DNA of 32,039 nucleotides from Candidatus Binatia bacterium (GTDB lineage Bacteria > Desulfobacterota > Binatia > HRBIN30). A model generated the notes under the pieces. The model was not told where the DNA came from. It ran no database searches and saw only the letters and a list, made by a program, of their open reading frames with translations. Below are positions 7,311 through 32,039 of this stretch, one piece after another. The stretch is from contig JBBRSP010000047.1 of the NCBI GenBank assembly GCA_038245295.1, positions 1 to 32,039 of the forward strand. The letters run 5' to 3'. Each line of letters starts with the position of its first letter. Position 1 is the stretch's first letter. A program made the position numbers and the translations under genes.

Positions 7311-8096
7311 ATGCCAGAAGTGAGTATGAAGCAGCTTCTAGAAGCCGGTGTGCACTTTGGTCACCAGACCAGCCGTTGGAACCCAAAGATGAAGCCCTAC
7401 ATCTTCGGCGCCCGTAACGGCATCTACATCATCGATCTGCAGCGCACCGTGAAGCTGTTCGAGACGGCGTACGCGTTCGTACGTGATCTCTCCGCCCGTG
7501 GCGGCTCACTTCTGTTCGTCGGCACCAAGAAGCAAGCGCAGGACGCGATCCGCGAAGAAGCAGAGCGTTGCGGCATGTTCTACGTCAATACGCGCTGGCT
7601 GGGCGGCACGCTGACCAATTTCCAGACCATCAAGGCAAGCATCGATCGCCTCAAGAAGTGCGAAGAGATGCTCGACGATCCGGCCATGGCGCAAGCCCTG
7701 ACCAAGCGTGAGTTGCTCAACATATCGCGTGAGAAGGACAAGCTCATGCAGTCGTTGGGCGGCATCAAGATGCTCAAGAAGCTGCCGGACGCGCTCTTCG
7801 TCATCGATCCGAAGAAGGAAGAGATCGCGGTCAGGGAAGCGAATAAGCTGCATATCCCGGTGGTCGCGGTGGTTGATACCAACTGCGATCCCGACGTCGT
7901 CGACCACAAGATTCCCGGCAATGACGACGCCATTCGTGCCATCCGCTTGTTCTGTGGCGCCATTGCCGACGCTGCCCTCGAGGGCAAGGCGATCAATGAA
8001 GAGCGCCAGCGCGGACAGGGCGTCGAAGCAGACGCCCCGGCCGAGAAAGTCGAAAAGGTCGAAGCCGAGCCGGTGTCCGAAGGAGCCATTGCATGA
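7311..8096 (+). CDS. rpsB: 30S ribosomal protein S2
   Basis: [48 protein letters not shown] and [11 protein letters not shown]. Confidence 0.99.
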
Positions 8097-8707
8097 GTGA
8101 GGTAAGTGCGACGTCGGTGCGCGATCTGCGCGACAAGACCGGCGCCGGAATGTTGGACTGCAAGAAGGCGTTGACCGATAGTGGTGGCGACGTCGACAAG
8201 GCGATTGTCATCCTTCGTGAGAAGGGCCTCGCCGCAGCGCAGAAGAAGTCAGCTCGTAACGCCAGCCAAGGCATGGTGGGCTCGTACATCCATGCCGGCG
8301 GCAAGATCGGCGTGCTGATCGAAGTGAACTGTGAAACCGACTTTGTGGCTCGCACCGATCTGTTTCAGGACATGGTGAAGGACCTGGCGATGCAAGTCGC
8401 CGCCGCCAACCCGCGGTTCGTGCGTCGCGAAGAAGTTCCTGCCGATCTGGTCGAAGCCGAACGCGCCATCTACCGAACCCAGGCCGCGGGCACCGGCAAG
8501 CCGGCGAACGTGATTGAGAAGATCGTTGATGGCAAGGTCGACAAGTTCTTTGCCGATGTCTGTCTACTCGAGCAGCCTTTTATCAAGGAGCCGGGCAAGA
8601 GTGTTGGCCAGTTGGTGACGGATTCGGTCGCACGCATTGGAGAGAACGTCGTGGTGCGCCGCTTCGCCCGCTTCCAACTCGGAGACGCGTCCGAACAGGC
8701 TGAATGA
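8093..8707 (+). CDS. tsf: Elongation factor Ts (short form)
   Basis: [16 protein letters not shown] and [14 protein letters not shown] overlap with rpsB. Confidence 0.99.
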
Positions 8708-8715
8708 GCGCCTAA

Positions 8716-9489
8716 GTGCCCGCCGCGAAACCCCGCTCTCGCTCCGCCAAGCCGCGTGCTGCCAAACGAGCCGCGCCTAAGGGGCTGCGTTACCAAAGAG
8801 TGTTGTTGAAGCTGAGCGGTGAGGCGCTAGCACCCGAGGGCGGCTACGGCATCGCTCCCGCCGTCCTGCAACGCATCGCTCTCGAAATCCGCGAAGTTCA
8901 TCTGCTCGGCTGCGAGCTGGCGATTGTCATCGGTGGAGGCAACATCTTCCGAGGCATCGCCGGCAGCGCCCGCGGGATGGACCGCGCCAGCGCCGACTAC
9001 ATGGGCATGCTGGGCACCGTCATCAATGCCCTTGCCCTCCAGGACGCTCTCGAACAATTGGGCGTCATGACGCGTGTTCTCTCGGCGATCGGCATGCAAC
9101 AGATCGCCGAGCCGTACATTCGCCGTCGCGCCACCCGACATCTCGAGAAGGCGCGCGTCGTCATCTTCGGTGCCGGTACCGGCAACCCGTTTTTCACAAC
9201 CGATACGGCAGCCAGTCTGCGCGCCGTCGAGATTGGCGCCGAGATCATCATGAAGGCGACCAACGTCGATGCCATCTACGACAAGGACCCAAAGAAGTTC
9301 CCGGGTGCCAAGCGCTTCACCAAGTTGAGCTACATCGAGTGCCTCAACCGGCACTTGAAAGTCATGGACTCAACTGCCATTTCCCTGTGCATGGACAACA
9401 ACTTACCGATCCTGGTGTTCGACCTGAATCGGCGCGGCAACATCAAGCGCGCCGTCCGGGGAGACTCGATCGGTACAATGGTGAATTGA
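8716..9489 (+). CDS. pyrH: UMP kinase
   Basis: [39 protein letters not shown] and VMDSTA. Basic N-terminal extension, so the exact start is uncertain. Confidence 0.98.
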
Positions 9490-13383: not shown

Positions 13384-14856
13384 TCAGTCGGGCTGTCGGA
13401 GCTCATAGACCGCCATCTGCATCCCGAAGTCGACGCGCTGGGCCGCGTGGTTTTCGATCCATTCGTGGATCGCGGCGCCTTCCGGAAACAGATAGGCGTA
13501 GTGGGTCCACAACACCCGCACCGGCCACCGCGTCGCCACGGCCGCGTCGAGGTCCTTCAGCGCGAAGAAACGCCACTCCTGTCGCACCGCGGTAGGTGCG
13601 TAGAACTTGATATACGGTCCGCCGTTCAGCAGCACCACAACATCCCCTGGGCGGATTGTTTTCTCGAGATACTCGCCGGCGCCGCGCCAGTCCTCGCGCG
13701 GAGAGCGATAGTAGGCGGGCAACTGCGGAATCGCCGTTGCCAAGAGACCGAGCGTGAGACAAGCACTGGCCAAGGTGGCGACCGGCAGGTCGCGGCGTGG
13801 TGACAGACGCTCGACGACAGCCACAGCGGCGCGCGCCGTGGCTTCTACTCCGGCTGCAACGAGCAGGAGGTATGGCGGCAAGATGAACAGCACCTGGCGC
13901 ACGTTGAAGAAGTAATGCACGAGCTGATCCGACAACACGACGAGCGGCAAGGTGGCACCGACCCAGAGCGCCAGCATAAGGCCTAGTGCGCTGTCGCGCC
14001 GGGTACAGATCCCCAACCCGATCAACGCGAAGGCGAACCACAACGGCCAATACTTCGGATTGCCGCCGCTCAAGGTGGTCAGGGTTTCGCGCACCAGCTC
14101 CCAGGTAAACGGCGGCGGCTCGATCGCCGGACGGTTGCCGACTTCGTAGCGTACGGCGAACAAGACCCACGGCACGAAGCCGACGCCGCCGACGAGCGCC
14201 GCGATCGTGAATCGTAGGAAGCGCTGGTAAGCGGGCGTGCGTGCGCGCGACCGAGAGAGCGACTGTCCCAGCGCGTAGACGCCATGAAAGGCGGCGAGCA
14301 GCACGGTGTAGTAGTGCGTGTAGAGGCCGGCGACGAGGCACAGCGAGTATCGCATCCACAGCCCTGTGCGATTGCGCTCCGAGGCGACCAGGAAACACTC
14401 GGTCGCGATCAGCGTCAGCAGCACGAACGAGGCATAGAAACGTAGCTCCTGCGAGTACCAGATATGAAAGCTGCTGAACGTCAGAAGCAGCGCGGCGATG
14501 ATGCCGGTCTCCGCCGACACGAGGCGCCGGCCCAGCCGCGCCAACCAGTATACCGACAATGTTCCCCACAACGCCGGCGGCAGCCGCAGCACCCATTCAC
14601 TGTGCGACAGCCGCACCATCACGCTGGTGATCAGATAGTCGAGCGGCGCCGCGCCGTGGTGCGCCTCGACGCCGGCAAGAATAGCGCGCAAAGAAGTTTC
14701 CGCCGCCACCGCCGCCTGCGCCACTTCATCGAACCACAAACTGCGCGACCCGAGACGATACAACCGCAACGCCGCAGCGATGGTCAGGATGGATCCCAGC
14801 ACCCAGCGGCTGTCGGCCGCGGCTGATGGCGGCGGGCGGTGAATCGGTGCGGACAT
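13384..14856 (-). CDS. GT-C superfamily membrane glycosyltransferase (PMT/ArnT-like)
   Basis: LRLYRLG.RSLWFDE, H..PL.Y, SEWVLRLP..L.G, HIWYSQELRFYA and LYTHYY, with many TM segments. Start at MSAPIH follows an AGGGGG RBS. Confidence 0.85.
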   Translation of the reverse strand: MSAPIHRPPPSAAADSRWVLGSILTIAAALRLYRLGSRSLWFDEVAQAAVAAETSLRAILAGVEAHHGAAPLDYLITSVMVRLSHSEWVLRLPPALWGTLSVYWLARLGRRLVSAETGIIAALLLTFSSFHIWYSQELRFYASFVLLTLIATECFLVASERNRTGLWMRYSLCLVAGLYTHYYTVLLAAFHGVYALGQSLSRSRARTPAYQRFLRFTIAALVGGVGFVPWVLFAVRYEVGNRPAIEPPPFTWELVRETLTTLSGGNPKYWPLWFAFALIGLGICTRRDSALGLMLALWVGATLPLVVLSDQLVHYFFNVRQVLFILPPYLLLVAAGVEATARAAVAVVERLSPRRDLPVATLASACLTLGLLATAIPQLPAYYRSPREDWRGAGEYLEKTIRPGDVVVLLNGGPYIKFYAPTAVRQEWRFFALKDLDAAVATRWPVRVLWTHYAYLFPEGAAIHEWIENHAAQRVDFGMQMAVYELRQPD

Positions 14857-22577: not shown

Positions 22578-22605
22578 GCGGCGAAGCCGCCAGCGCCGGC
22601 TAAAC

Positions 22606-22754
22606 GAGGCTGTCTCAAGACCTGCTGAGCCGGCTTCGACAGGCTCATGGTTCGACGAGCTCACCATGAGCGGGTGCTTGTTTGATTTTCAAAGACATTT
22701 TGTCCGCTCGCCCTGAGCCCGTCGAAGGGTGAGCCTATGTTTTGAGACAGCCTC
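22606..22754. mobile_element. 149-bp MITE with 13-bp terminal inverted repeats GAGGCTGTCTCAA/TTGAGACAGCCTC
   Basis: Perfect TIRs, no ORF, and a near-identical inverted copy at 31911-32039. Confidence 0.85.
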
Positions 22755-22824
22755 TGAAGCCTGCGCCTACCGGTTTCCAATTCGCCAGCGTATTCAGCGT
22801 GGTAGGCGCAGGCTTCAGCCTGCG
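22755..22824. repeat. Inverted pair of GTAG-type REPs (TGAAGCCTGCGCCTACC ... GGTAGGCGCAGGCTTCAGCCTGCG)
   Basis: 22755-22771 is the exact reverse complement of 22801-22817. The left REP is cut at its loop by the MITE. Confidence 0.85.
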
Positions 22825-22877
22825 GTGAGCTGAGCGCTGGCTGCTCGTCGAATCTACGTGCGAAAGCCCGCGTTATG

Positions 22878-22931
22878 CTCGTCGAAGGGTGAGCCTAAGT
22901 GCTGAGACAGCTTCTAAAAGCCTGCGGCTAC
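22878..22931. repeat. Degenerate MITE end followed by a REP half
   Basis: GTCGAAGGGTGAGCCTA...TGAGACAGC matches 22721-22751 and is followed by TAAAAGCCTGCGGCTAC. Confidence 0.75.
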
Positions 22932-22942
22932 CCATTCGAGAT

Positions 22943-23701
22943 CTACACCGCCTTGCGGCCGCCGAACACGGCCAGCTCGAATACCTTGAAGAAACAGTCG
23001 ACGTCGACGAAGCCGATGTCGCGTAGCCAGGCGCATTGGGTGTCGACCGGCGCCAGGATGTTGGCTGCCTTGTCTGGGCGCTGTACGAACTCGCGCCGTA
23101 GCTCCTCGCGTGACTTGCCGCTGCCCTTGCTCGCTTGAAAGGCGGTGATCGTGTCTACCATCAGCTCGTCGGCCATTGCTTCGACGCGTGGTGTTGCGGA
23201 CTCGACGTGTTCAACATTGACGAACATGCCACCCGGGGCGAGCAGCTCGAAGATCTCGCGGTAGAGGGCTTTCTTGCGGTCGTGTTCGAGATGGTGAATG
23301 GCGTAGCCCGAGACGATCAAGTCGATGGGCTCGCGGGTTTGCAGGGAGTCGGCCCAAGCCGGCGACGCGAGATCACCGACCGCAAAGATTGGCGTCGGCT
23401 TGAACGAGCCGAGACTGCGGCGCGCCTCGTCGAGCATGGCTTCGGAGAAATCAATCAAGACGGCCTGGGCGCCGGGGAAGCGCGACAAGACCGCATGCGC
23501 CAGGACGCCGCTGCCGCAACCAAGGTCGGCAAAACGCCGCACCGCGCCGAGCTGCGCCGCGACGACGCGCAGCATGATCTCCAATTGATCGGCGGCGTAG
23601 GGGACGCCGCCACGCACATCGTGGACGAAGGTATGCACCAGCTTCGGATCCTGCCACACGACATCTTGTCGCTGTTCCCGGGAATTCATGCGGTCCACCA
23701 T
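22943..23701 (-). CDS. Class I SAM-dependent methyltransferase (CmoA-like fold family)
   Basis: DLGCGSG, IDFSEAML, DLIVSGYAIHHL and LAPGGMFVN. Start is 23701 or 23689. Confidence 0.9.
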   Translation of the reverse strand: MVDRMNSREQRQDVVWQDPKLVHTFVHDVRGGVPYAADQLEIMLRVVAAQLGAVRRFADLGCGSGVLAHAVLSRFPGAQAVLIDFSEAMLDEARRSLGSFKPTPIFAVGDLASPAWADSLQTREPIDLIVSGYAIHHLEHDRKKALYREIFELLAPGGMFVNVEHVESATPRVEAMADELMVDTITAFQASKGSGKSREELRREFVQRPDKAANILAPVDTQCAWLRDIGFVDVDCFFKVFELAVFGGRKAV

Positions 23702-23756
23702 GGTTCGATGCCGCCCCGTCGGTCAACCGACGAGTTCGCACGAATGTCAGAGGGAC

Positions 23757-23780
23757 GGTAGGCGCAGGCTTCAGCCTGCG
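23757..23780 (+). repeat. GTAG-type REP GGTAGGCGCAGGCTTCAGCCTGCG
   Basis: Identical to 22801-22824. Confidence 0.88.
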
Positions 23781-23845
23781 AAGAGCTCCGACGCGAATCG
23801 GAGGGCGACGCCTAAGCCCCAGCCTAAGCCTGTGAGCGCAGCGAA

Positions 23846-24595
23846 CTAGAGATACGCCCCACCATTCGGACTGATCACCTGCCCGGTCACAAACCCGGCC
23901 TCCTCCGACGCCAGATAGGCACAAGCCGCCGCGATATCCTCGGGGCGGCCGACGCGTTTGACCGGCATCTTCTGCGCCAGTTGCTCGACCACACTGTCGG
24001 GCATCCCCGAGGCGCGCAGCATCGGTGTATCGATCAGGCCGGGAGCGACGGCGTTGACGGTGATGCCATCCGCAGCGAGCTCGTGCGCCAAGGCCTTGGT
24101 GAAACCGATGATGCCACCCTTGGCCGAAGCATAGTGCAGCAGGCCCGAGCCGCCGCCGTTCATGCCGGCCACCGACGTAATGTTGATGATGCGGCCCCAG
24201 CGCGCCGCGATCATCCCGTCGGCTACCGCCTTGGCACAGTGGAAGACACCCTTGAGGTGCACCGAGATCATCTCGTCGAAGATCGCCTCACTCATCATAG
24301 CGAATGGCACCAGCGTGCAGATGCCGGCGCTGCAAACGAGGATTTGAGGTGCACCGAGCTTCAAGGTTGCTCTGGCAGCGGCAGCCTGAACCGACGCGGC
24401 GTTTGTCACGTCGACCTCGATTGCCTCAGCGCGGCCGCCGGCGGCGATGATCTCCGCCGCGACCGACTGCGCCCCGGCGAGGTTGCGATCGACGACGGCG
24501 ACCGCCGCACCATCCTGCGCCAGTCGAAGCGCCACACCGCGGCCGATCCCCGAGGCACCGCCGGAAATGAATGCCGTCTTGTTCTGCAACTTCAT
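23846..24595 (-). CDS. FabG-like short-chain dehydrogenase/reductase
   Basis: MKLQNKTAFISGGASGIG, GRIINITSVAG, YASAK, ITVNAVAPGLIDT and FVTGQVISPNGG. TGATG overlap with the upstream small gene. Confidence 0.93.
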   Translation of the reverse strand: MKLQNKTAFISGGASGIGRGVALRLAQDGAAVAVVDRNLAGAQSVAAEIIAAGGRAEAIEVDVTNAASVQAAAARATLKLGAPQILVCSAGICTLVPFAMMSEAIFDEMISVHLKGVFHCAKAVADGMIAARWGRIINITSVAGMNGGGSGLLHYASAKGGIIGFTKALAHELAADGITVNAVAPGLIDTPMLRASGMPDSVVEQLAQKMPVKRVGRPEDIAAACAYLASEEAGFVTGQVISPNGGAYL

Positions 24596-24834
24596 CAGTG
24601 CACCCGTACGTGTCCTTCCAGTCCATTGTCCAGCCGCGCGTTCAACCGTTCCAGGCTGCGCACGGCGCGCAACGCCTCGTTGCGCGAGCTCAGTCCCGTC
24701 GCTACGACGGCGGCGGTATTGGCGTCGACAACTTCCCAACCTACCTCGCCGGTACGTCGCAGTCTTACTTCGCGCATGCGGTAGTTCGCCGAAGCCTGCT
24801 CATCGCTGAGAACGTCGCGACCGATCGCTTCCAT
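24595..24834 (-). CDS. Small hypothetical protein (79 aa)
   Basis: AGGAGA RBS, start 9 bp after the MurG-like stop, and stop overlapping the SDR start. Confidence 0.7.
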   Translation of the reverse strand: MEAIGRDVLSDEQASANYRMREVRLRRTGEVGWEVVDANTAAVVATGLSSRNEALRAVRSLERLNARLDNGLEGHVRVH

Positions 24835-24843
24835 GGGATTCTC

Positions 24844-25947
24844 CTACATCCGTCGTCGGTCTTGCGGAAGCAAAGATAGGCACATGGCGGCAACATGTTC
24901 CGCGGCATCCGTCGGGGCGCCGCGGCGCATCGCATCGGCAGCGCGTTGCCAGGCGCTCGCATCACGCAGGAGACCGGCGATGTGTTGCGCAACGTCTTCG
25001 CTGCGCCAGTCCGCTTCCGTGCTCCAACCACATCCCGTCAGACGCGCAAACTCGATCGCGTTGTGGCGCTGATGATCCTCCGAGGCCCAGCTCAGCGGCA
25101 CCATGTAGATCGGCAGGCCCGCATTGGAGCACTCGGCGGTCGTAATACCGGCGGCGCACAGCGCAAAATCGGCCCACGCCAAGGCCGCCGGCATCTCATC
25201 GGTCGCCGCTTCGACGTGGGCTGGGATTGCCGCTTGCTCATAGGCGGCGCGTACGGCGGCGACCGCATCGGCACTACCCGTCAGATGACGAACCTCGATC
25301 GACACGCCGAGATCGCGGATGCGCGTCGCCAGCTCGGCGCCGACGCGATTGAAGAAGGCCGATCCATACGAGCCGCCGGTGAAGAGGAGATGTGCCGGAG
25401 AATGCACGCCGACCCGCGTCGCGCCGACGGCCGCGAAGGCCGCACGCACGGGGATGCCGGTGACCTCGACGTTCCGAGTCGTGAAGAAGGCGCGTGTCGC
25501 CGCGTAGCTGACGGCGATGCGGTCGGCGAAACGCCCGAGCATTCGATTGGCGAGGCCGGGGTTGACGTTGCCCTCGTGGATCAGGATCGGCAGCCCCAAC
25601 CAGCGTGCCGCCAGCAAGCCGCCGGCGCTGGCATAACCACCGAATCCGACGACCGCCGCGATGTCGTCGCGTTGGAGGATGCGTCGTGCCGCCAATATGC
25701 CGCGGCTGAGGTTGGCCAGCGCCTTCACCTTGCCGCCGGCTCCGACGCGGAGATATGCCGAAGCAGGAATCGCCTCGACTCGGTACCCGGCGCGTCGCAG
25801 ATACGCTGTTGGCCCGTCCACCGCTTCGCCCAGGAAGAGAATGTCGAGCTGCGTATCCCGCCGTCGCAACACCTCTGCCACCGCCGCCGCGAGATACACA
25901 TGCCCCGCCGTCGTTCCGGCCAGCAGCGCGACGCCGCGCTTGTTCAT
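24844..25947 (-). CDS. MurG-like GT28 glycosyltransferase (divergent paralog)
   Basis: AGTTAGH, VVGFGGYAS, IHEGN..PGLANR, VTGIPVR, TGGSYGS, WAD..LCAAG.TTAE, P...EDHQRHNA: the MurG motif order with substitutions. No dcw genes nearby. Confidence 0.85.
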   Translation of the reverse strand: MNKRGVALLAGTTAGHVYLAAAVAEVLRRRDTQLDILFLGEAVDGPTAYLRRAGYRVEAIPASAYLRVGAGGKVKALANLSRGILAARRILQRDDIAAVVGFGGYASAGGLLAARWLGLPILIHEGNVNPGLANRMLGRFADRIAVSYAATRAFFTTRNVEVTGIPVRAAFAAVGATRVGVHSPAHLLFTGGSYGSAFFNRVGAELATRIRDLGVSIEVRHLTGSADAVAAVRAAYEQAAIPAHVEAATDEMPAALAWADFALCAAGITTAECSNAGLPIYMVPLSWASEDHQRHNAIEFARLTGCGWSTEADWRSEDVAQHIAGLLRDASAWQRAADAMRRGAPTDAAEHVAAMCLSLLPQDRRRM

Positions 25948-25966
25948 CGATCCCACCAGCGGATTC

Positions 25967-26046
25967 AAATCACCAAACGATCAAATGACCAAATGGCGAA
26001 ATAGACAAATGGCGAAATTGCGAAATGGCCAAATGCCCAAATGCCC
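25967..26046 (+). repeat. 10 x 8-bp degenerate tandem repeat (AAATGNCS-like) in the divergent promoter region
   Basis: AAATCACC AAACGATC AAATGACC AAATGGCG AAATAGAC AAATGGCG AAATTGCG AAATGGCC AAATGCCC AAATGCCC. Confidence 0.92.
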
Positions 26047-26094
26047 CTATCTCCCATTGAGGGCCCGGCTCTTGCGCGGTATCGGGAGACGCCG

Positions 26095-27369
26095 ATGAGT
26101 GCCCAGCCCAAGCGGGTCGCCGTCGTTGTCCTCGGCGATGTCGGTCGAAGCCCGCGCATGCAGTATCACGCCCAGGCGCTGGCGCAGGCCGGCGTGCAAG
26201 TCGACCTCATCGGCGCCGCCGGAAGCCCGCTCCCGGAGAGCATCATCGGCAACGCCGCAATCCATTCTCACCTCTTCGAACAGAGCCTGCGCGCGGCGCG
26301 TCACGCCTGGTCGCGGCCGCTGTTTGTCGCGTACTCGGGCCTGCGTGCCGTTCGCGAAATGTTCACCTTGGGGCTGACGCTGCTCTTCCGTATCCCCAAG
26401 CCCGACGCCATTCTCATTCAGAATCCACCGTCGATCCCCGTGTTGATGATTGCCTGGTGCGCCGCCCGGTTGCGTGGCGCAAAGTTGATCATCGACTGGC
26501 ACAACTACGGTTTTGCGATGCTCGCGCTGACCCTAGGGCCGCGTAATCCCCTCGTTGCTCTGGCGCGAGCCTACGAAATGTTCTTTGGCCGCCGCGCCGA
26601 CGCAAGCCTGTGTGTCTCTCGAGCGATGGCCGATGATCTGCGCGATCGCTGGGGTATCGAGGCGACGATTCTCTATGATCGCCCGGCGGCCCGTTTCCAG
26701 CCGACGTCCCCAGGCGAGCGATCGACCCTCCTCGACAAACTGGAAGGCGCGCTGGAAGGCTACGACCCCAATTCCGGGATGCGCCCGGTACTCATCGTCA
26801 GCAGCACCAGTTGGACAAAGGACGAGGACTTCTCGCTGCTGATCGAGGCGGCGCGCAGCTACGACCAGGCGGCGCGCCAGTACTCCGGGACGCTGCCGCG
26901 TCTCCTGTTCGTGATCACCGGACGTGGACCGCTGCGAGCGCACTACGAGGAAGAGTTGCGTGGCCTCGACCTGCACGTCGTGCATTTCGAGACCTTGTGG
27001 CTCGAGCCCGAAGACTATCCGCGCTTTCTTAGTATCGCCGACCTGGGCATCTGCCTGCATCGCTCGGCGAGCGGCGTCGACCTTCCCATGAAGGTTGCCG
27101 ATATGGTTGGTGCCGGCTTGCCGGTGTTGGCGTTGCATTACAGCGACTGCATCGAGGAGATGATCGTGCATGGTCGCACCGGCATGCTGTTCCAGTCGAG
27201 CCGCGAGCTGTTCGAACAGTTGGCCGAGATCGTGCGCGGCTTTCCGACGTCGGCAACCGAGCTGCAACGTTTGCGGCGCACGGTCGGCGCTGCCCGCGGC
27301 TACGCCTGGGACGCCGGTTGGCGCGACGAAGCGTGGCCGCTGCTGCAGAGACAGCTGGGCGACGAATGA
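26095..27369 (+). CDS. ALG1-like beta-1,4-mannosyltransferase (GT33-like)
   Basis: VVVLGDVGRSPRMQYHA, LIQNPPSIP, LIIDWHNYG, LYDRP, IVSSTSWTKDEDFSLL, ITGRGP, WLEPEDYP and ADLGICLHRSASGVDLPMKVADM closely match eukaryotic ALG1 as I recall it. GGAG RBS upstream. Confidence 0.9.
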   Translation: MSAQPKRVAVVVLGDVGRSPRMQYHAQALAQAGVQVDLIGAAGSPLPESIIGNAAIHSHLFEQSLRAARHAWSRPLFVAYSGLRAVREMFTLGLTLLFRIPKPDAILIQNPPSIPVLMIAWCAARLRGAKLIIDWHNYGFAMLALTLGPRNPLVALARAYEMFFGRRADASLCVSRAMADDLRDRWGIEATILYDRPAARFQPTSPGERSTLLDKLEGALEGYDPNSGMRPVLIVSSTSWTKDEDFSLLIEAARSYDQAARQYSGTLPRLLFVITGRGPLRAHYEEELRGLDLHVVHFETLWLEPEDYPRFLSIADLGICLHRSASGVDLPMKVADMVGAGLPVLALHYSDCIEEMIVHGRTGMLFQSSRELFEQLAEIVRGFPTSATELQRLRRTVGAARGYAWDAGWRDEAWPLLQRQLGDE

Positions 27370-29186
27370 GCGGTAACGCCGAGACCTCGATGCTCGCCGC
27401 GCTGCGGCAATGCGTCGAGCTTCTTCCTGCACCCAATCGGCGCCTGTGGCTGCTTTGTATTCCCCTTGCCGCGGTTGCCGCCGGATTGGAAGCGGCTGCC
27501 GCCGGCGGCGTGTTTGGCTTGGTGAGCGTGTTGACGGGTGGTGACGCCCGACATGTCCCGGTGCTCGGCAAAGCGTGGGCGCTAGTCTCCGCCAATGGCA
27601 CCCCGAGCGTCGCTGCCATGGCGGTCTTCCTCGCCGCTCTCTACGTCGTCAAGAATCTGGTGCTGGTCCTGCAAGTGTGGTTGCTGAGTCGCGCGACCAA
27701 TGATGCGTCGGTAGCGCTCTCGCGGCGCTTGCTGCGCGGCTTCTTGCACATGCCTCTATCGGCCCACCTGGAGCGGACGTCCGCCGACATCATCCATCAA
27801 GCCACCGAAGCGGTTGACATCGCTGTTCGCCAGTTTCTGTCGCCGCTCACCATGGCCGCGTCTGAGGTCCTCGTGCTGGCGGTGATCGCGCTCGTGCTTG
27901 TTCTTGCGTCGCCCGGCGCGGCACTCGCCGTCGTCATCGCTTTTGCGTTGATCCTTTTCCTGGTGATGCGTCTGGTGCGCCACTGGCTGCTCATCTGGGG
28001 CTCGCACGAACAGCACCGCCGCGCCGAGATGTTGTACATCTTGCAGCAAGCCTTCGAGGGTTTGCGCGAAGTGAAGCTGCGCGGTGGCGAACGCTTCTTC
28101 GAGGAGCGCTTCGCATCGCGTCATCGTATCCTGGTGCGCGCTCGGCACCGTTCCGGGACGCTCAACCAGGCATCGCGCCTGATCGTCGAGACGGCGTTCG
28201 TCGTCGGCACTCTGATTACGGTGATCGTCATCGACCACGTCTACGGCGCCACCAGTGTGGTTCTCCCGCTACTCGGCGTGTACGCCTACGCCGGCTTCCG
28301 AGTCATCCCGTCGATGAACCGCATTTTCCAGTACACGGGCATTGCCCGCTACGGCCAGCCTTCGGTTGCGCGCATGGCGGCGGATCTGCGCTCCGTCGAG
28401 GCCATCCAGGAGGGCGTCGCAAGCTCCGGAGCGAGCGCGGTGATTGAGCTCACACGAGCAATTTCGTTCGAGGACGTCAGCCATGTCTACCCGCAAGCGT
28501 CTCTGGCGGCGCTGAGTGGCATCAACCTTACCATTGAGCGCGGCCAGTCGATCGCCATCGTTGGACCGACGGGCTCCGGCAAGAGCACGCTGATCAACAT
28601 CCTCCTTGGTTTTGTCGAGCCGACGAGTGGTCGAGTGTCCGTGGACGGCGTGGATATCCGTCGCGGCTTGCGCTCGTGGCGCGGCAAGCTGGGTTACGTG
28701 CCGCAGTTGGTTTTTCTGCTCGACGACAGCTTGCGACGCAACATCGCGTTTGCCCAGGCGGATCAGGACATCGACGAAGAACGCGTGCGCCGCGCCGTTC
28801 ACGCGGCGCAGTTGGATGAAGTGATCGCCGCGCTTCCGAAGGGTCTAGATTCGGTGGTCGGCGAACGCGGTGCGCGCCTGTCGGGCGGCGAGCGCCAGCG
28901 GGTTGCCATCGCGCGGGCTCTTTATCCGGATCCGGAAGTGGTTGTCTTCGACGAGGCGACGTCGGCGTTGGACAGCGAGACCGAACGCGAACTGACGCGA
29001 GCCATCGACACCCTGCGCGGTTACAAGACGATCGTCATCATCACGCACCGAATGAACACCGCAAAACGGTGCAACCGCATCGTGGTGCTCGACCGCGGCC
29101 GCATCCACGGCGTTGGTACTTATGAAGAACTGCTCGCCGGCAACGCAGTGTTTCAGCGTCTCGCGGAAAGGAAGAGTGAAGAGTGA
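27366..29186 (+). CDS. Fused TMD-NBD ABC exporter, PglK/WlaB-like (glycan-locus type)
   Basis: About six TM helices, FRVIPSMNRI, Walker A GPTGSGKST, YVPQ, LSGGERQR, VVFDEATSALD and ITH. ATGA overlap with the ALG1-like gene. The ABC call is secure; the PglK subfamily call is inference. Confidence 0.85.
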   Translation: MSGNAETSMLAALRQCVELLPAPNRRLWLLCIPLAAVAAGLEAAAAGGVFGLVSVLTGGDARHVPVLGKAWALVSANGTPSVAAMAVFLAALYVVKNLVLVLQVWLLSRATNDASVALSRRLLRGFLHMPLSAHLERTSADIIHQATEAVDIAVRQFLSPLTMAASEVLVLAVIALVLVLASPGAALAVVIAFALILFLVMRLVRHWLLIWGSHEQHRRAEMLYILQQAFEGLREVKLRGGERFFEERFASRHRILVRARHRSGTLNQASRLIVETAFVVGTLITVIVIDHVYGATSVVLPLLGVYAYAGFRVIPSMNRIFQYTGIARYGQPSVARMAADLRSVEAIQEGVASSGASAVIELTRAISFEDVSHVYPQASLAALSGINLTIERGQSIAIVGPTGSGKSTLINILLGFVEPTSGRVSVDGVDIRRGLRSWRGKLGYVPQLVFLLDDSLRRNIAFAQADQDIDEERVRRAVHAAQLDEVIAALPKGLDSVVGERGARLSGGERQRVAIARALYPDPEVVVFDEATSALDSETERELTRAIDTLRGYKTIVIITHRMNTAKRCNRIVVLDRGRIHGVGTYEELLAGNAVFQRLAERKSEE

Positions 29187-29337
29187 CGGGACCCGAGGTC
29201 CTACCGGTTGGATCGTTGGACATGCAGCGCCACCGCGCTACGGCCGTTCGCGCATTCAGGGGGAATTCCAGAAACACGTGAACGATGCTGAGGAGATCGT
29301 TCTCACCGACCCGGCTCCTCTCTCCGTCTCATTCGAT

Positions 29338-29622
29338 TTACGACCTCGGACGTAGCCGCGCCGCCGCGTCGATGTAGATGGACGAGCGCGGGCCGATGGC
29401 GGAGATCTCAATGGCCGCACCGCGTTCGCGATAGACAATACGAATCCGCCCGACGCGGAGAGACTTCCAGCCGGCCAGCTCTTGCTTGAGATCCTTGCCG
29501 ATACTTGGATTGGCGCGCAGCTCGTCGAGCCCGCGCCGGATTCGCCGCTTCATGTCGGGATGCAGCGACCGAATCGCCGCCGCCACCGATGGCGGTAGGC
29601 GTAGAGGTTTGACGGCTGCCAC
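29338..29622 (-). CDS. Type II toxin, RelE/ParE family
   Basis: L..NP..GK.L..EL.G..SLRVG..RIVY.....I.I.AIG.R..IY. Lies 2 bp downstream of the antitoxin. Confidence 0.9.
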   Translation of the reverse strand: MAAVKPLRLPPSVAAAIRSLHPDMKRRIRRGLDELRANPSIGKDLKQELAGWKSLRVGRIRIVYRERGAAIEISAIGPRSSIYIDAAARLRPRS

Positions 29623-29624
29623 GG

Positions 29625-29921
29625 CTAGCGCGGCGATCGCTTGCGTGGCTTCTGTGCGACGAGCCTATCCAGGGCGGCCGTATCGTAGAGGGTGCCATGG
29701 CCCCGTTGTAGGGCGCGTTTGCCGCGCCGGATCTCACGCATGAGATCGTCGTCGGCGAGGATCTCCGTAGTTTCCTTCCAGCTCTCGAATTCCTCGTGGC
29801 TCACCAGCACCGCGGCAGCTCGGCCATTCCGCGTAATCGTGATCTCTTCGGATCGCGCTGCCACGTCGGCAACCAGCTCACTCAGGGTCGCTTTTGCCTC
29901 GGAGAGGGGAAGGATACGCAT
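29625..29921 (-). CDS. Type II antitoxin, Phd/YefM family
   Basis: LSEAKATLSELV..V....EEITITRNGRAAAVLVS.EEFESWKET.EIL. Confidence 0.93.
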   Translation of the reverse strand: MRILPLSEAKATLSELVADVAARSEEITITRNGRAAAVLVSHEEFESWKETTEILADDDLMREIRRGKRALQRGHGTLYDTAALDRLVAQKPRKRSPR

Positions 29922-29927
29922 GCCAGG

Positions 29928-29955
29928 GTCATAGTCCGAATTCAGACTAGATCAA
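29928..29955 (-). promoter_or_regulatory. Putative TA promoter (TTGATC-N16-TATGAC) with an overlapping 18-bp operator palindrome
   Basis: TAGTCCGAATTCAGACTA (29932-29949) is palindromic with one mismatched pair. The -10 lies 6 nt before the ATG and there is no RBS. Confidence 0.6.
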
Positions 29956-30121
29956 CCAGGGGGCGCACGCTTCGACTGCCCTCAATGAAGGCGTGCAAGG
30001 ATGTTGGTGGGGGGCCGAGTATTGCGTTCAACTGCAACTGTTCACCTTATGATTCCAGGCGATATGGTCGGAGTGGACCGAGTCGATCGTGTAGGAGTAA
30101 GGAGGGATAGGCGTATATGCG

Positions 30122-30472
30122 ATGAAACCAAAGAGCTCTGTGGAGCAGCCCGCATGGGATATCGTGCAACGCATCAGGCGGCTGCGTGAGGCTCGTTACC
30201 ACGTTGGCCTGGCGGCGCGGCGGTTCGGTCCTCGGAGCGCCTTCCGCCAGGTGACGGAGCGCAATCCGGAATTACGCGAGTTGCCGTCTGATCCTACGAA
30301 GCTGGACGCGGAAGAGCAGATTACCAAAGATCTGCTGCTTCAGATCTTTCGCAGCGGTCAGCTAGAGACCTACCCCGATAGTTTCTGGCGCCACCTCAGG
30401 TCGGCCGCCAACGAGCTGCGCGACGATGCACTCAAGCAATCGTTGTCGCGGCGCCGGCGCCGGGGAGATTGA
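30122..30472 (+). CDS. Hypothetical protein
   Basis: Helical-looking 116-aa ORF with purine-rich upstream sequence. No motif recognised. Confidence 0.5.
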   Translation: MKPKSSVEQPAWDIVQRIRRLREARYHVGLAARRFGPRSAFRQVTERNPELRELPSDPTKLDAEEQITKDLLLQIFRSGQLETYPDSFWRHLRSAANELRDDALKQSLSRRRRRGD

Positions 30473-30561
30473 CGACTCGCAAATGATAGTCAAAGGCGGA
30501 TCGGCGCATTCACCCGACCCCCGACGCGTCACGCCTGCCTTCCGTGCTAGCTGAGGTTTAG

Positions 30562-31182
30562 ATGGCAACACCACCGGACAAGATCTCCGCGCCAACCCTG
30601 AGCCACTACAACCGTTCCGCCCAGGGTTTCTGGGAGGGTACGCGCGATCACGACGTGCGACAGAACATCGAGGCGCTACTCACACGCATCGAGGTTCCGC
30701 CGCCGTTCGACATCCTCGACTTGGGCTGCGGCCCGGGACGCGATCTCAAGACATTCTCTGACCTGGGGCATCGCGCTGTAGGTGTCGACGGTGCGGAGCG
30801 TTTTGTGGAAATGGCGCGCGCGTACAGTGGCTGTGAGGTGTGGCACCAGGACTTCCTACAGCTCGACCTGCCGCCGCAGCGCTTCGACGGCATCTTCGCC
30901 AATGCTTCGTTGTTTCACGTGCCGACCGCCGATCTGCCGCGTGTGCTTGCGCAACTGCAGGCGACGCTGCGGCCTGGTGGTGTCCTCTTCAGCTCGAACC
31001 CGCGCGGCAACAACGAAGAGGGGTGGAACAACGGGCGCTACGGCGCCTACCACGATCTCGAAACCTGGCGCCGCTTCGTTACCGCCGCCGGCTTCGTCGA
31101 GCTCACCCACTACTACCGCCCACCGGGATTGCCGCGCGACCAGCAGCCGTGGCTGGCGAGCGTGTGGCGCCCGCTGAGCTGA
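30562..31182 (+). CDS. Class I SAM-dependent methyltransferase
   Basis: ILDLGCGPGRD, VGVDG, FDGIFANASLFHVP and LRPGGVLFSS. Confidence 0.92.
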   Translation: MATPPDKISAPTLSHYNRSAQGFWEGTRDHDVRQNIEALLTRIEVPPPFDILDLGCGPGRDLKTFSDLGHRAVGVDGAERFVEMARAYSGCEVWHQDFLQLDLPPQRFDGIFANASLFHVPTADLPRVLAQLQATLRPGGVLFSSNPRGNNEEGWNNGRYGAYHDLETWRRFVTAAGFVELTHYYRPPGLPRDQQPWLASVWRPLS

Positions 31183-31197
31183 GATGGTTCAGAAGGG

Positions 31198-31252
31198 GAT
31201 GGTGTCAGGGGGTTGGCTGTTAGGGGTCGTAACACCCAACACCATAACATCC
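31198..31252. repeat. Imperfect hairpin of short repeats between convergent genes (possible bidirectional terminator)
   Basis: GGTGTCAG/GGGGTTGG/CTGTTA face TAACACC/CAACACCA/TAACATCC. Confidence 0.45.
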
Positions 31253-31268
31253 TGCATCATCGGGATCG

Positions 31269-31712
31269 TCATCGGACGCCGTTGCGTACGATGAACACCG
31301 GGCAGGGCGCGTGCCGAAGCAGCTTTTCCGCTACGCTCGCCGTCAGGAGCGCCCCGACACCGGTACGCTCGCGTGTTGAGGTGACGATGAGGTCGACGTT
31401 GCGTCGCTTGGCAACCTCGATCAGGTGCTCGAGCGGATCACCGATCTCGACCTCCAGCTCACAACGGGCGTAGCCTTCCAACACCGCGTCACGTAGCGTC
31501 TCGAGCTCGTTTTGCGCCTTCTCCTTGATCTGGTCGAAACCCAGGAGGTGGCCATCTTCGTCCTTGAGCTGCTCTGTCTGGATGTGAATCGAATGGGCCA
31601 GTACGATCGTCGCATCGCACGTCTTGGCGAACCATAAGGCATACTCGGCGGCGGTCTGTGACCCTTCGGAGAAGTCGGTGGGACAAAGGATCGTTTTGAA
31701 CTCTCGTGGCAT
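31269..31712 (-). CDS. Universal stress protein (UspA family)
   Basis: FKTILCPTDFSEGS, GDP...L...A.....DLIV and SVAEKLLRHAPCPVFIV. AAGGAG RBS. Confidence 0.93.
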   Translation of the reverse strand: MPREFKTILCPTDFSEGSQTAAEYALWFAKTCDATIVLAHSIHIQTEQLKDEDGHLLGFDQIKEKAQNELETLRDAVLEGYARCELEVEIGDPLEHLIEVAKRRNVDLIVTSTRERTGVGALLTASVAEKLLRHAPCPVFIVRNGVR

Positions 31713-31910
31713 GAACGGTCTCCTTTCCTTCGCGGCTATCGAAGCACCTCGCTAGACGTCCTCGTCGCGCGGGCTCTCATCCAGCTGGGCCCCGCGACAT
31801 CCGCAACGGCAATGCACCCCCTCAGACACTGCTTTACGGTAGACGTCAACAGTCTGAAGGGCGTGTCGCCTTTGCACCCAAAGTCCGCCGGTGCCGGTCC
31901 GCAGGCTGAA

Positions 31911-32039
31911 GAGGCTGTCTCAAAACATAGGCTCACCCTTCGACGGGCTCAGGGCGAGCGGACAAAATGTCTTTGAAAATCAACCAAGCACCCGCTCAGG
32001 CTGAGCCTGTCGAAGCCGGCTCCGCAAGGTTTTGAGACA
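31911..32039. mobile_element. Second, inverted MITE copy cut by the window end and preceded by REP half CGCAGGC-TGAA
   Basis: The reverse complement aligns to 22611-22754. The window ends inside the TIR (TTGAGACA). Confidence 0.85.

Follow-up and report, generated by a model that had tools for sequence, protein, structure and literature searches.

The window, a stretch of 32,039 nucleotides that makes up the whole of contig C47 of the source genome (G000; 6.63 Mb, 96.6% complete and 3.35% contaminated), contains a three-gene locus consisting of a MurG paralog gene, an ALG1 gene and an ABC transporter gene. The ALG1 gene (positions 26095–27369, forward strand) encodes P0001, a 424-residue homolog of the GT33 β-1,4-mannosyltransferase ALG1. 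Its reading frame is intact with no internal stops, and the six ALG1 motifs of the original prediction are all found in order, at residues 14, 109, 133, 236, 274 and 321. A putative Shine-Dalgarno-like GGGAGA sequence (26084–26089, forward strand) is located 5 nt 5′ of the ATG codon. The TGA stop codon shares an ATGA sequence (27366–27369) with the ATG codon of the following gene in a 4-nt overlap. The overlapping gene (27366–29186, forward strand) encodes a 606-residue ABC exporter of the MsbA/HepA/PglK type, which is proposed to flip a lipid-linked oligosaccharide. The MurG paralog gene (24844–25947, reverse strand) is transcribed divergently from ALG1 and encodes a 367-residue GT28 protein (Pfam PF03033 and PF04101), a candidate chitobiose-PP-lipid synthase that would take the role of ALG13/14. 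A 147-bp spacer (25948–26094, no strand assigned) separates the two divergent genes and, judging from its sequence, is the likely site of the promoters for both. A-rich, CAAATG-like short words are repeated within the spacer (25975–26046).

The locus resembles the rest of its genome. The GC3 value of the ALG1 gene (0.79) lies at the 69th percentile of the 3148 G000 genes of at least 250 aa, and the tetranucleotide distance of the three-gene locus lies at the 55th percentile of 324 G000 fragments. The ALG1 contig also contains the bacterial genes rpsB, uppS, ilvN, ilvC, rho, tsf and frr. A single Logan contig of 9104 nt covers positions 22825–31928 with zero differing letters at a depth of 12.1, similar to those of the flanking contigs (9.5–13.6); this comparison is a re-assembly check rather than an independent one, as the run may be the source of the window DNA. 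Short identical pieces of the window are present in two further Logan runs of the same study. The host-like composition and the unbroken contig, in which no chimera was seen, rule out contamination or a chimera as the source of the ALG1 gene. The original prediction had argued against contamination from a ribosome-binding site, host-like codons and the ABC gene overlap, and each of these features was observed. Elsewhere in the window, a dispersed repeat of ∼150–190 bp occurs at 22593–22932 and 31888–32039, with near-identical copies on many contigs, and the window contig terminates in one copy. A PMT_2 (GT-C) membrane glycosyltransferase is encoded 11 kb from ALG1 (13384–14802, reverse strand), and some ALG1 clusters of other genomes hold a different PMT-type gene.

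P0001 shares 40–44% identity over nearly its whole length with six of seven named eukaryotic ALG1 proteins and 46% identity, in pieces, with the seventh. It matches a Basidiobolus protein with an E value of 1e-108, and its atlas neighbours (0.98) are annotated as chitobiosyldiphosphodolichol beta-mannosyltransferases. An ALG1 profile, built here from 104 homologs, gives at least 426 bits for the ALG1 proteins of 87 loci and at most 36 bits for other glycosyltransferases, of which GT4 enzymes align to ALG1 along only ∼150 C-terminal residues. This gap, together with a WcaI model score of 47 bits of 276 and weak Pfam GT4 matches, rules out a generic GT4 and places P0001 in GT33, as had been predicted. 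The gene at 26095–27369 is a real and native bacterial gene of the ALG1 family. The predicted structure of P0001 adopts a GT-B fold (pLDDT 95.7). The nearest solved structures are the GT4 enzymes MshA and BshA, with TM scores of ∼0.7 and sequence identities of 14–18%, and a sequence search of solved structures found no ALG1. Among the bacterial-side ALG1 homologs, four (P0125, P0116, P0197 and P0235) are 675–798 aa in length and may be fusions. The ALG1 of genome G038 (L033; G038:C17:205767–207033) is split across two frames by a sequencing error or in a broken gene.

The first strand of P0001 begins at residue 7, and an N-terminal membrane helix is absent. The original prediction had contrasted this absence with the anchored yeast and human enzymes; the absence is confirmed, but it is not a bacterial peculiarity. 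By a hydropathy rule, the anchor is absent from 56 of 91 eukaryote-side sequences, present in 23 and uncallable in 12, in a set skewed to the best matches of an anchor-less query. Yeast Alg1 without its anchor is active in vitro, according to Yu et al. (10.1101/2023.12.27.573458), and the missing anchor of P0001 is therefore not regarded as a defect. Helix 74–99 of P0001 is amphipathic. Yu et al. (10.1101/2023.12.27.573458) tie residues Q136, H356, S358, M366, K367, Y383 and K112 to yeast Alg1 function. With positions matched through the motifs and their spacing, and not through an alignment with the yeast sequence, H356, S358, M366, K367 and Y383 correspond to P0001 H322, S324, M332, K333 and Y349 with a constant offset of 34, Q136 corresponds to Q109, and K112 corresponds to R84. 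H322, S324 and K333 are invariant in all 104 homolog rows, and Q109 is found in 103 of the 104. The yeast residue S354, which is not conserved according to the same study, corresponds to P0001 column 320, occupied by C or S.

The MurG paralog matches a solved MurG structure with an E value of 4e-36 and is distinct from the housekeeping enzyme. It scores 198.6 bits on TIGR01133, below the cut-off of 250.25, and the HEQN motif is changed to HEGN, with further substitutions at positions that never vary among the housekeeping copies. The catalytic His is kept, as is the Glu of HEQN. The housekeeping murG of G000 is located on contig C40 inside the division cluster. The sub-cut-off score, the position outside the division cluster and the changed motif columns rule out the window paralog as the housekeeping MurG. 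In a MurG tree of 48 rows, 27 of 29 ALG1-linked copies are grouped apart from 19 housekeeping-type copies; the other two (L137 and L148) branch on the housekeeping side. No match to Alg14 (PF08660) was found in G000. Three ALG1-positive genomes of genus g18 (G033, G027 and G037; loci L037, L038 and L040) contain wecA, STT3, ALG1 and the companion GT4 together with a single MurG and no Alg14 match, so that no candidate enzyme for the second-GlcNAc step was found in that genus.

The ABC exporter falls below the cut-off of all curated models, including PglK (251.7 bits of 1000), and MsbA and HepA score above PglK. Its matches to solved structures are dominated by the ATPase domain and carry no information on PglK. 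For the membrane domain, close matches are found in 14 of 15 ALG1-positive genomes vs 1 of 26 ALG1-negative genomes. An 80-codon remnant that is 67% like the N-terminus of the window ABC gene lies within another polysaccharide locus of the same genome (G000:C2:316557–316799, reverse strand).

Gene co-occurrence was analysed in 41 genomes, comprising G000 and 40 relatives; because these genomes are kin rather than independent samples, no P value is given. ALG1 is present in 15 of them (G000 and 14 relatives). The STT3 family and the companion GT4 each occur in all 15 ALG1-positive genomes and in 3 of the 26 ALG1-negative genomes, the MurG paralog in 11 of 15 vs 1 of 26, and ALG2 in 7 of 15 vs none of 26. 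WecA-like genes are more widespread (25 of 41 genomes, including ones without ALG1). The order of the MurG paralog, ALG1 and ABC genes is kept in four loci (L030, L031, L107 and L109). In relatives, the trio is embedded in a longer cluster that also encodes a WecA-type transferase, an STT3-family oligosaccharyltransferase and either ALG2 or a different GT4, and the STT3 gene is often adjacent to or overlaps genes of the ALG1 cluster. STT3, MurG paralog, wecA, ALG1, ALG2 and ABC genes are all combined at a single locus in L001/L029 and in L102. The cluster of a Methylomirabilia locus (L007) is arranged in a different order, with ALG2 absent from the contig. Metagenomes yielded 80 ALG1 loci, 41 of which span at least 5 kb; by the profiles and thresholds defined here, 21 of the 41 contain a companion gene, and among the remaining 20 are purine operons of the acidobacterial type and contigs that look fungal.

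In G000, the gene set is split: the MurG paralog, ALG1 and ABC genes are located on the window contig, and wecA and STT3 are located on contig C2. Two STT3-type genes (PF02516) are present, on C2 and C12. The C2 protein keeps the DYDSY, SDND, TVSE and WWDYG motifs. In the second (L044; G000:C12:69180–71924, reverse strand), WWPNG replaces WWDYG, and the protein is possibly non-catalytic or altered in specificity. Second STT3 copies elsewhere carry WWHDG or WWDNG. The STT3 proteins of the ALG1 clusters score at most 35 bits of 1300 on NF050801, and their match to solved AglB, STT3 and PglB structures is confined to the WWDYG region. A WecA-like gene (PF00953), which would supply the initiating HexNAc-1-P transferase, immediately precedes STT3 on C2, and a ManC-type N-terminal domain is encoded on C15 (TIGR01479, 281 bits, under the cut-off). 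ALG2 was not found in the 96.6% complete G000 genome, so the glycan of G000 may end at Man1GlcNAc2 or be lengthened in another way. Xu et al. (10.1101/2025.10.15.682550) name a GIGGAER-like and an EHFGxVPxE motif for ALG2, and both occur in the ALG2 proteins of relatives. The companion GT4 has an EHFG-type motif, its atlas neighbours are bacterial and archaeal GT4 enzymes, and no ALG11 Pfam match was obtained at E values up to 5; its match in G000 is weak (32%).

The spread of ALG1 is patchy. The gene occurs in 3 of 251 genomes of the host phylum, the other two in the same class, in 5 of 251 Acidobacteriota and in 5 of 121 genomes of the Methylomirabilia phylum. No ALG1 was found in viral contigs (0 of 68 pattern matches). 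An acidobacterial ALG1 clade resides in purine-catabolism operons (L003, L004, L005, L108, L141, L146, L160 and L174), mostly without glycosylation genes. The operon of L003, with ALG1 at ∼8000–9260, encodes xanthine dehydrogenase-like subunits, allantoinase, allantoicase, OHCU decarboxylase, HIU hydrolase and urate oxidase. In L005, ALG2 adjoins the acidobacterial ALG1. Among four acidobacterial genomes with such operons, two gave no STT3 match and two gave short, weak matches. ALG1 therefore does not always imply an N-glycosylation pathway.

Bacterial ALG1 has already been reported, and P0001 alone is a further member of the reported group. Xu et al. (2025; bioRxiv 10.1101/2025.10.15.682550) describe 204 homologs of ALG1 from bacteria and a single, doubtful one from archaea. 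According to their report, three of five bacterial ALG1 proteins, from Gammaproteobacteria, Polyangia and Binatia, are active, rescue yeast and make Man-GlcNAc2, and the other two, from Deltaproteobacteria and Methylomirabilota, are inactive on GlcNAc2-PP-phytanyl. The Binatia protein (BiALG1) rescued alg1-null yeast, and its Man-GlcNAc2 product was extended by human ALG2 (10.1101/2025.10.15.682550). The original prediction had presented P0001 as a eukaryotic-signature protein in a bacterium; the family holds, but the finding is less surprising than presented, given the 2025 preprint, which includes Binatia, and the 14 ALG1-positive genomes among 40 relatives. Kifer et al. (10.1101/2024.10.30.621208) list ALG1 matches in bacteria only, and Lombard (2016; PMC4973528) left the origin of ALG1 as unknown and possibly a eukaryotic invention. 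In its available text, the report of Xu et al. (10.1101/2025.10.15.682550) contains no ALG1 tree, gene context or mention of STT3/PglB, and no gene context or cluster of a bacterial ALG1 was found in print in the open-access literature. What is new is this context and, with it, the probable presence of a bacterial N-glycosylation system built on a eukaryote-type core. Three points go beyond the original prediction: that the neighbouring MurG is a divergent paralog, what kind of protein the ABC gene encodes, and that ALG1 is linked to an STT3-type oligosaccharyltransferase. The neighbouring genes suggest, in a form open to testing, what active ALG1 enzymes do in bacteria, which Xu et al. (10.1101/2025.10.15.682550) did not establish.

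The favoured reading, which we judge probable, is a bacterial lipid-linked N-glycosylation pathway with a Man-β1,4-GlcNAc2 core in which ALG1 would perform one step. Family membership, key residues, gene order and co-occurrence are observations; the roles of the MurG paralog, ABC and STT3 proteins, the glycan and its protein targets are what we infer from them. The WecA-type enzyme encoded on C2 would generate GlcNAc-PP-undecaprenol, and the MurG paralog would add the second GlcNAc to yield a chitobiose-PP-lipid. ALG1, presumably held at the cell membrane's inner face by its amphipathic helix in place of a membrane anchor, would then move mannose from GDP-Man to GlcNAc2-PP-undecaprenol in a β-1,4 linkage. 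ALG2 or a related or companion GT4 may extend the glycan in some genomes. The overlapping ABC transporter would flip the lipid-linked glycan, and the STT3/PglB-type enzyme encoded on C2 would transfer it onto asparagines. On this gene content, these bacteria probably build the eukaryote-type glycan core themselves. Against the pathway stand the two inactive bacterial ALG1 proteins among the five assayed, the sub-cut-off scores of the ABC exporter, the g18 genomes without the paralog, the acidobacterial ALG1 copies in purine-catabolism operons, the split gene set of G000 in which ALG2 was not found, and a flat sequon count: N-x-S/T is not enriched in 267 secreted-like G000 proteins (546 seen vs 535 expected, in a count on this one genome).

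The flat count would also suit an unlikely alternative, in which ALG1, the MurG paralog and the ABC exporter supply, by synthesis and export, a lipid-linked Man-GlcNAc unit to an envelope polymer or a glycolipid, in the style of a teichoic-acid linker or an O-antigen, and STT3 does not use it on proteins. Envelope synthesis in general employs WecA, MurG-like and MsbA-like proteins, the window trio lies apart from STT3, and the remnant of the ABC gene sits in another polysaccharide locus. The constant presence of STT3 in the 15 ALG1-positive genomes, often adjacent to or overlapping the cluster, and the kept catalytic motifs of STT3 argue instead for transfer to protein.

A second, distinctly unlikely alternative retains the ALG1 fold and donor site of P0001 but assigns it a different acceptor, such as a GlcNAc-PP-lipid with one GlcNAc only, or some small molecule; the product would then not be the eukaryotic core. 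The inactivity of two of five bacterial homologs on GlcNAc2-PP-phytanyl, as reported, the lack of a second-GlcNAc candidate in the g18 genomes and the orphan acidobacterial ALG1 copies are in line with this idea. P0001, however, groups among the Binatia sequences, the class whose tested member is reported as active, keeps R84 and Q109 on the acceptor side and is encoded next to the MurG paralog, all of which argue against it.

The phylogeny of ALG1 divides into two sides. In a FastTree analysis of 187 rows, one branch (0.969) has 91 rows on one side, with all seven named eukaryotes among them, and 96 on the other, with every genome-labelled bacterium; 19 of the 20 clusters that were looked up on this second side lack an organism name, and archaeal members may be among them. 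The same split in a 72-row tree, from which the G038 row was left out (a split gene, mostly out of frame in the 187-row tree), has an SH-aLRT value of 94.5 and an aBayes value of 1 in the best tree of a non-converged search. It is recovered exactly in 22 of 75 bootstrap trees, with one to four rows moving in the others and P0001 never among them. The mean patristic distance is 1.66 on the bacterial side vs 1.57 on the eukaryote side, the latter biased to slow sequences, and the bacterial and eukaryotic groups are about equally deep. The rooting tests give conflicting or uninformative results: the MAD root falls on the bacteria/eukaryote split with an ambiguity of 0.996, and under a non-reversible model 16 roots inside eukaryotes rank first among 34 chosen roots, all within 6.6 log units, with an AU p value of 0.018 for the split root and values of up to 0.29 for several roots inside bacteria. 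The original prediction had offered an old eukaryotic transfer or a prokaryotic sister group; bacteria and eukaryotes lie on either side of one branch, and either origin may be right. It is very improbable that the gene came by a recent and isolated transfer from a eukaryote, or that it is a decaying or mis-assembled insert with no function: the patchy spread and the 16 best-ranked roots inside eukaryotes would fit it, but the host-like composition and unbroken contig, the conserved trio order in four other loci, a bacterial diversity as deep as that of the sampled eukaryotes and the absence of P0001 from the eukaryote side in all 75 bootstrap trees argue against it. Recent acquisition from a crown eukaryote is unlikely, and an ancient transfer may have gone in either direction. 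Xu et al. (10.1101/2025.10.15.682550) claim a bacterial origin of ALG1, which the present data neither confirm nor refute.

A wider form of the preferred pathway is evenly poised between right and wrong. It holds that Binatia and Methylomirabilia natively N-glycosylate with a eukaryotic core (Man1-3GlcNAc2), using true ALG1 and ALG2, a MurG paralog recruited to make chitobiose, an ABC protein as flippase and an STT3 group of their own, which would be a compact route to that core made up wholly of bacterial enzymes, and that they are a living candidate donor or early recipient of eukaryotic ALG1 and ALG2. If the pathway is true, it would give bacterial en bloc N-glycosylation a second type of glycan structure and be a case of MurG re-used for the ALG13/14 step, and it would provide a bacterial enzyme set for producing eukaryote-type glycoproteins in laboratory E. 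coli.

P0001 belongs to the same family as the bacterial homologs of Xu et al. (10.1101/2025.10.15.682550) and, by inference, to the same host class as their Binatia member; activity and yeast rescue are reported for those homologs, whereas P0001 is known from its sequence and gene context. Agl24 of Sulfolobus acidocaldarius (PMC8993221), a prokaryotic chitobiose-PP-lipid maker with a MurG-like fold, is a precedent for the proposed role of the MurG paralog. Agl24, however, is ∼16% identical to MurG and forms a separate family, whereas the paralog is a plain MurG derivative, so the chitobiose role would have arisen separately in the two. Eukaryotic ALG1 (CAZy GT33) has the motifs, key residues and GT-B fold in common with P0001 and differs in the N-terminal anchor, which the yeast and human enzymes contain and P0001 lacks. 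The eukaryotic system uses a dolichyl carrier, Alg13/14 for the chitobiose step and Rft1; here, the carrier is presumably undecaprenyl, with uppS in the window, and the MurG paralog and the ABC exporter are the proposed counterparts. The Campylobacter pgl locus combines PglB and PglK, ABC-type export and the sugar transferases PglC, PglA, PglJ, PglH and PglI. The system proposed here would resemble it in lipid-linked assembly, ABC-type export, a single-subunit STT3-family transferase and clustered genes, and differs in its ALG1/ALG2-type enzymes, WecA and MurG paralog and in its STT3 proteins, which form a far-diverged group.
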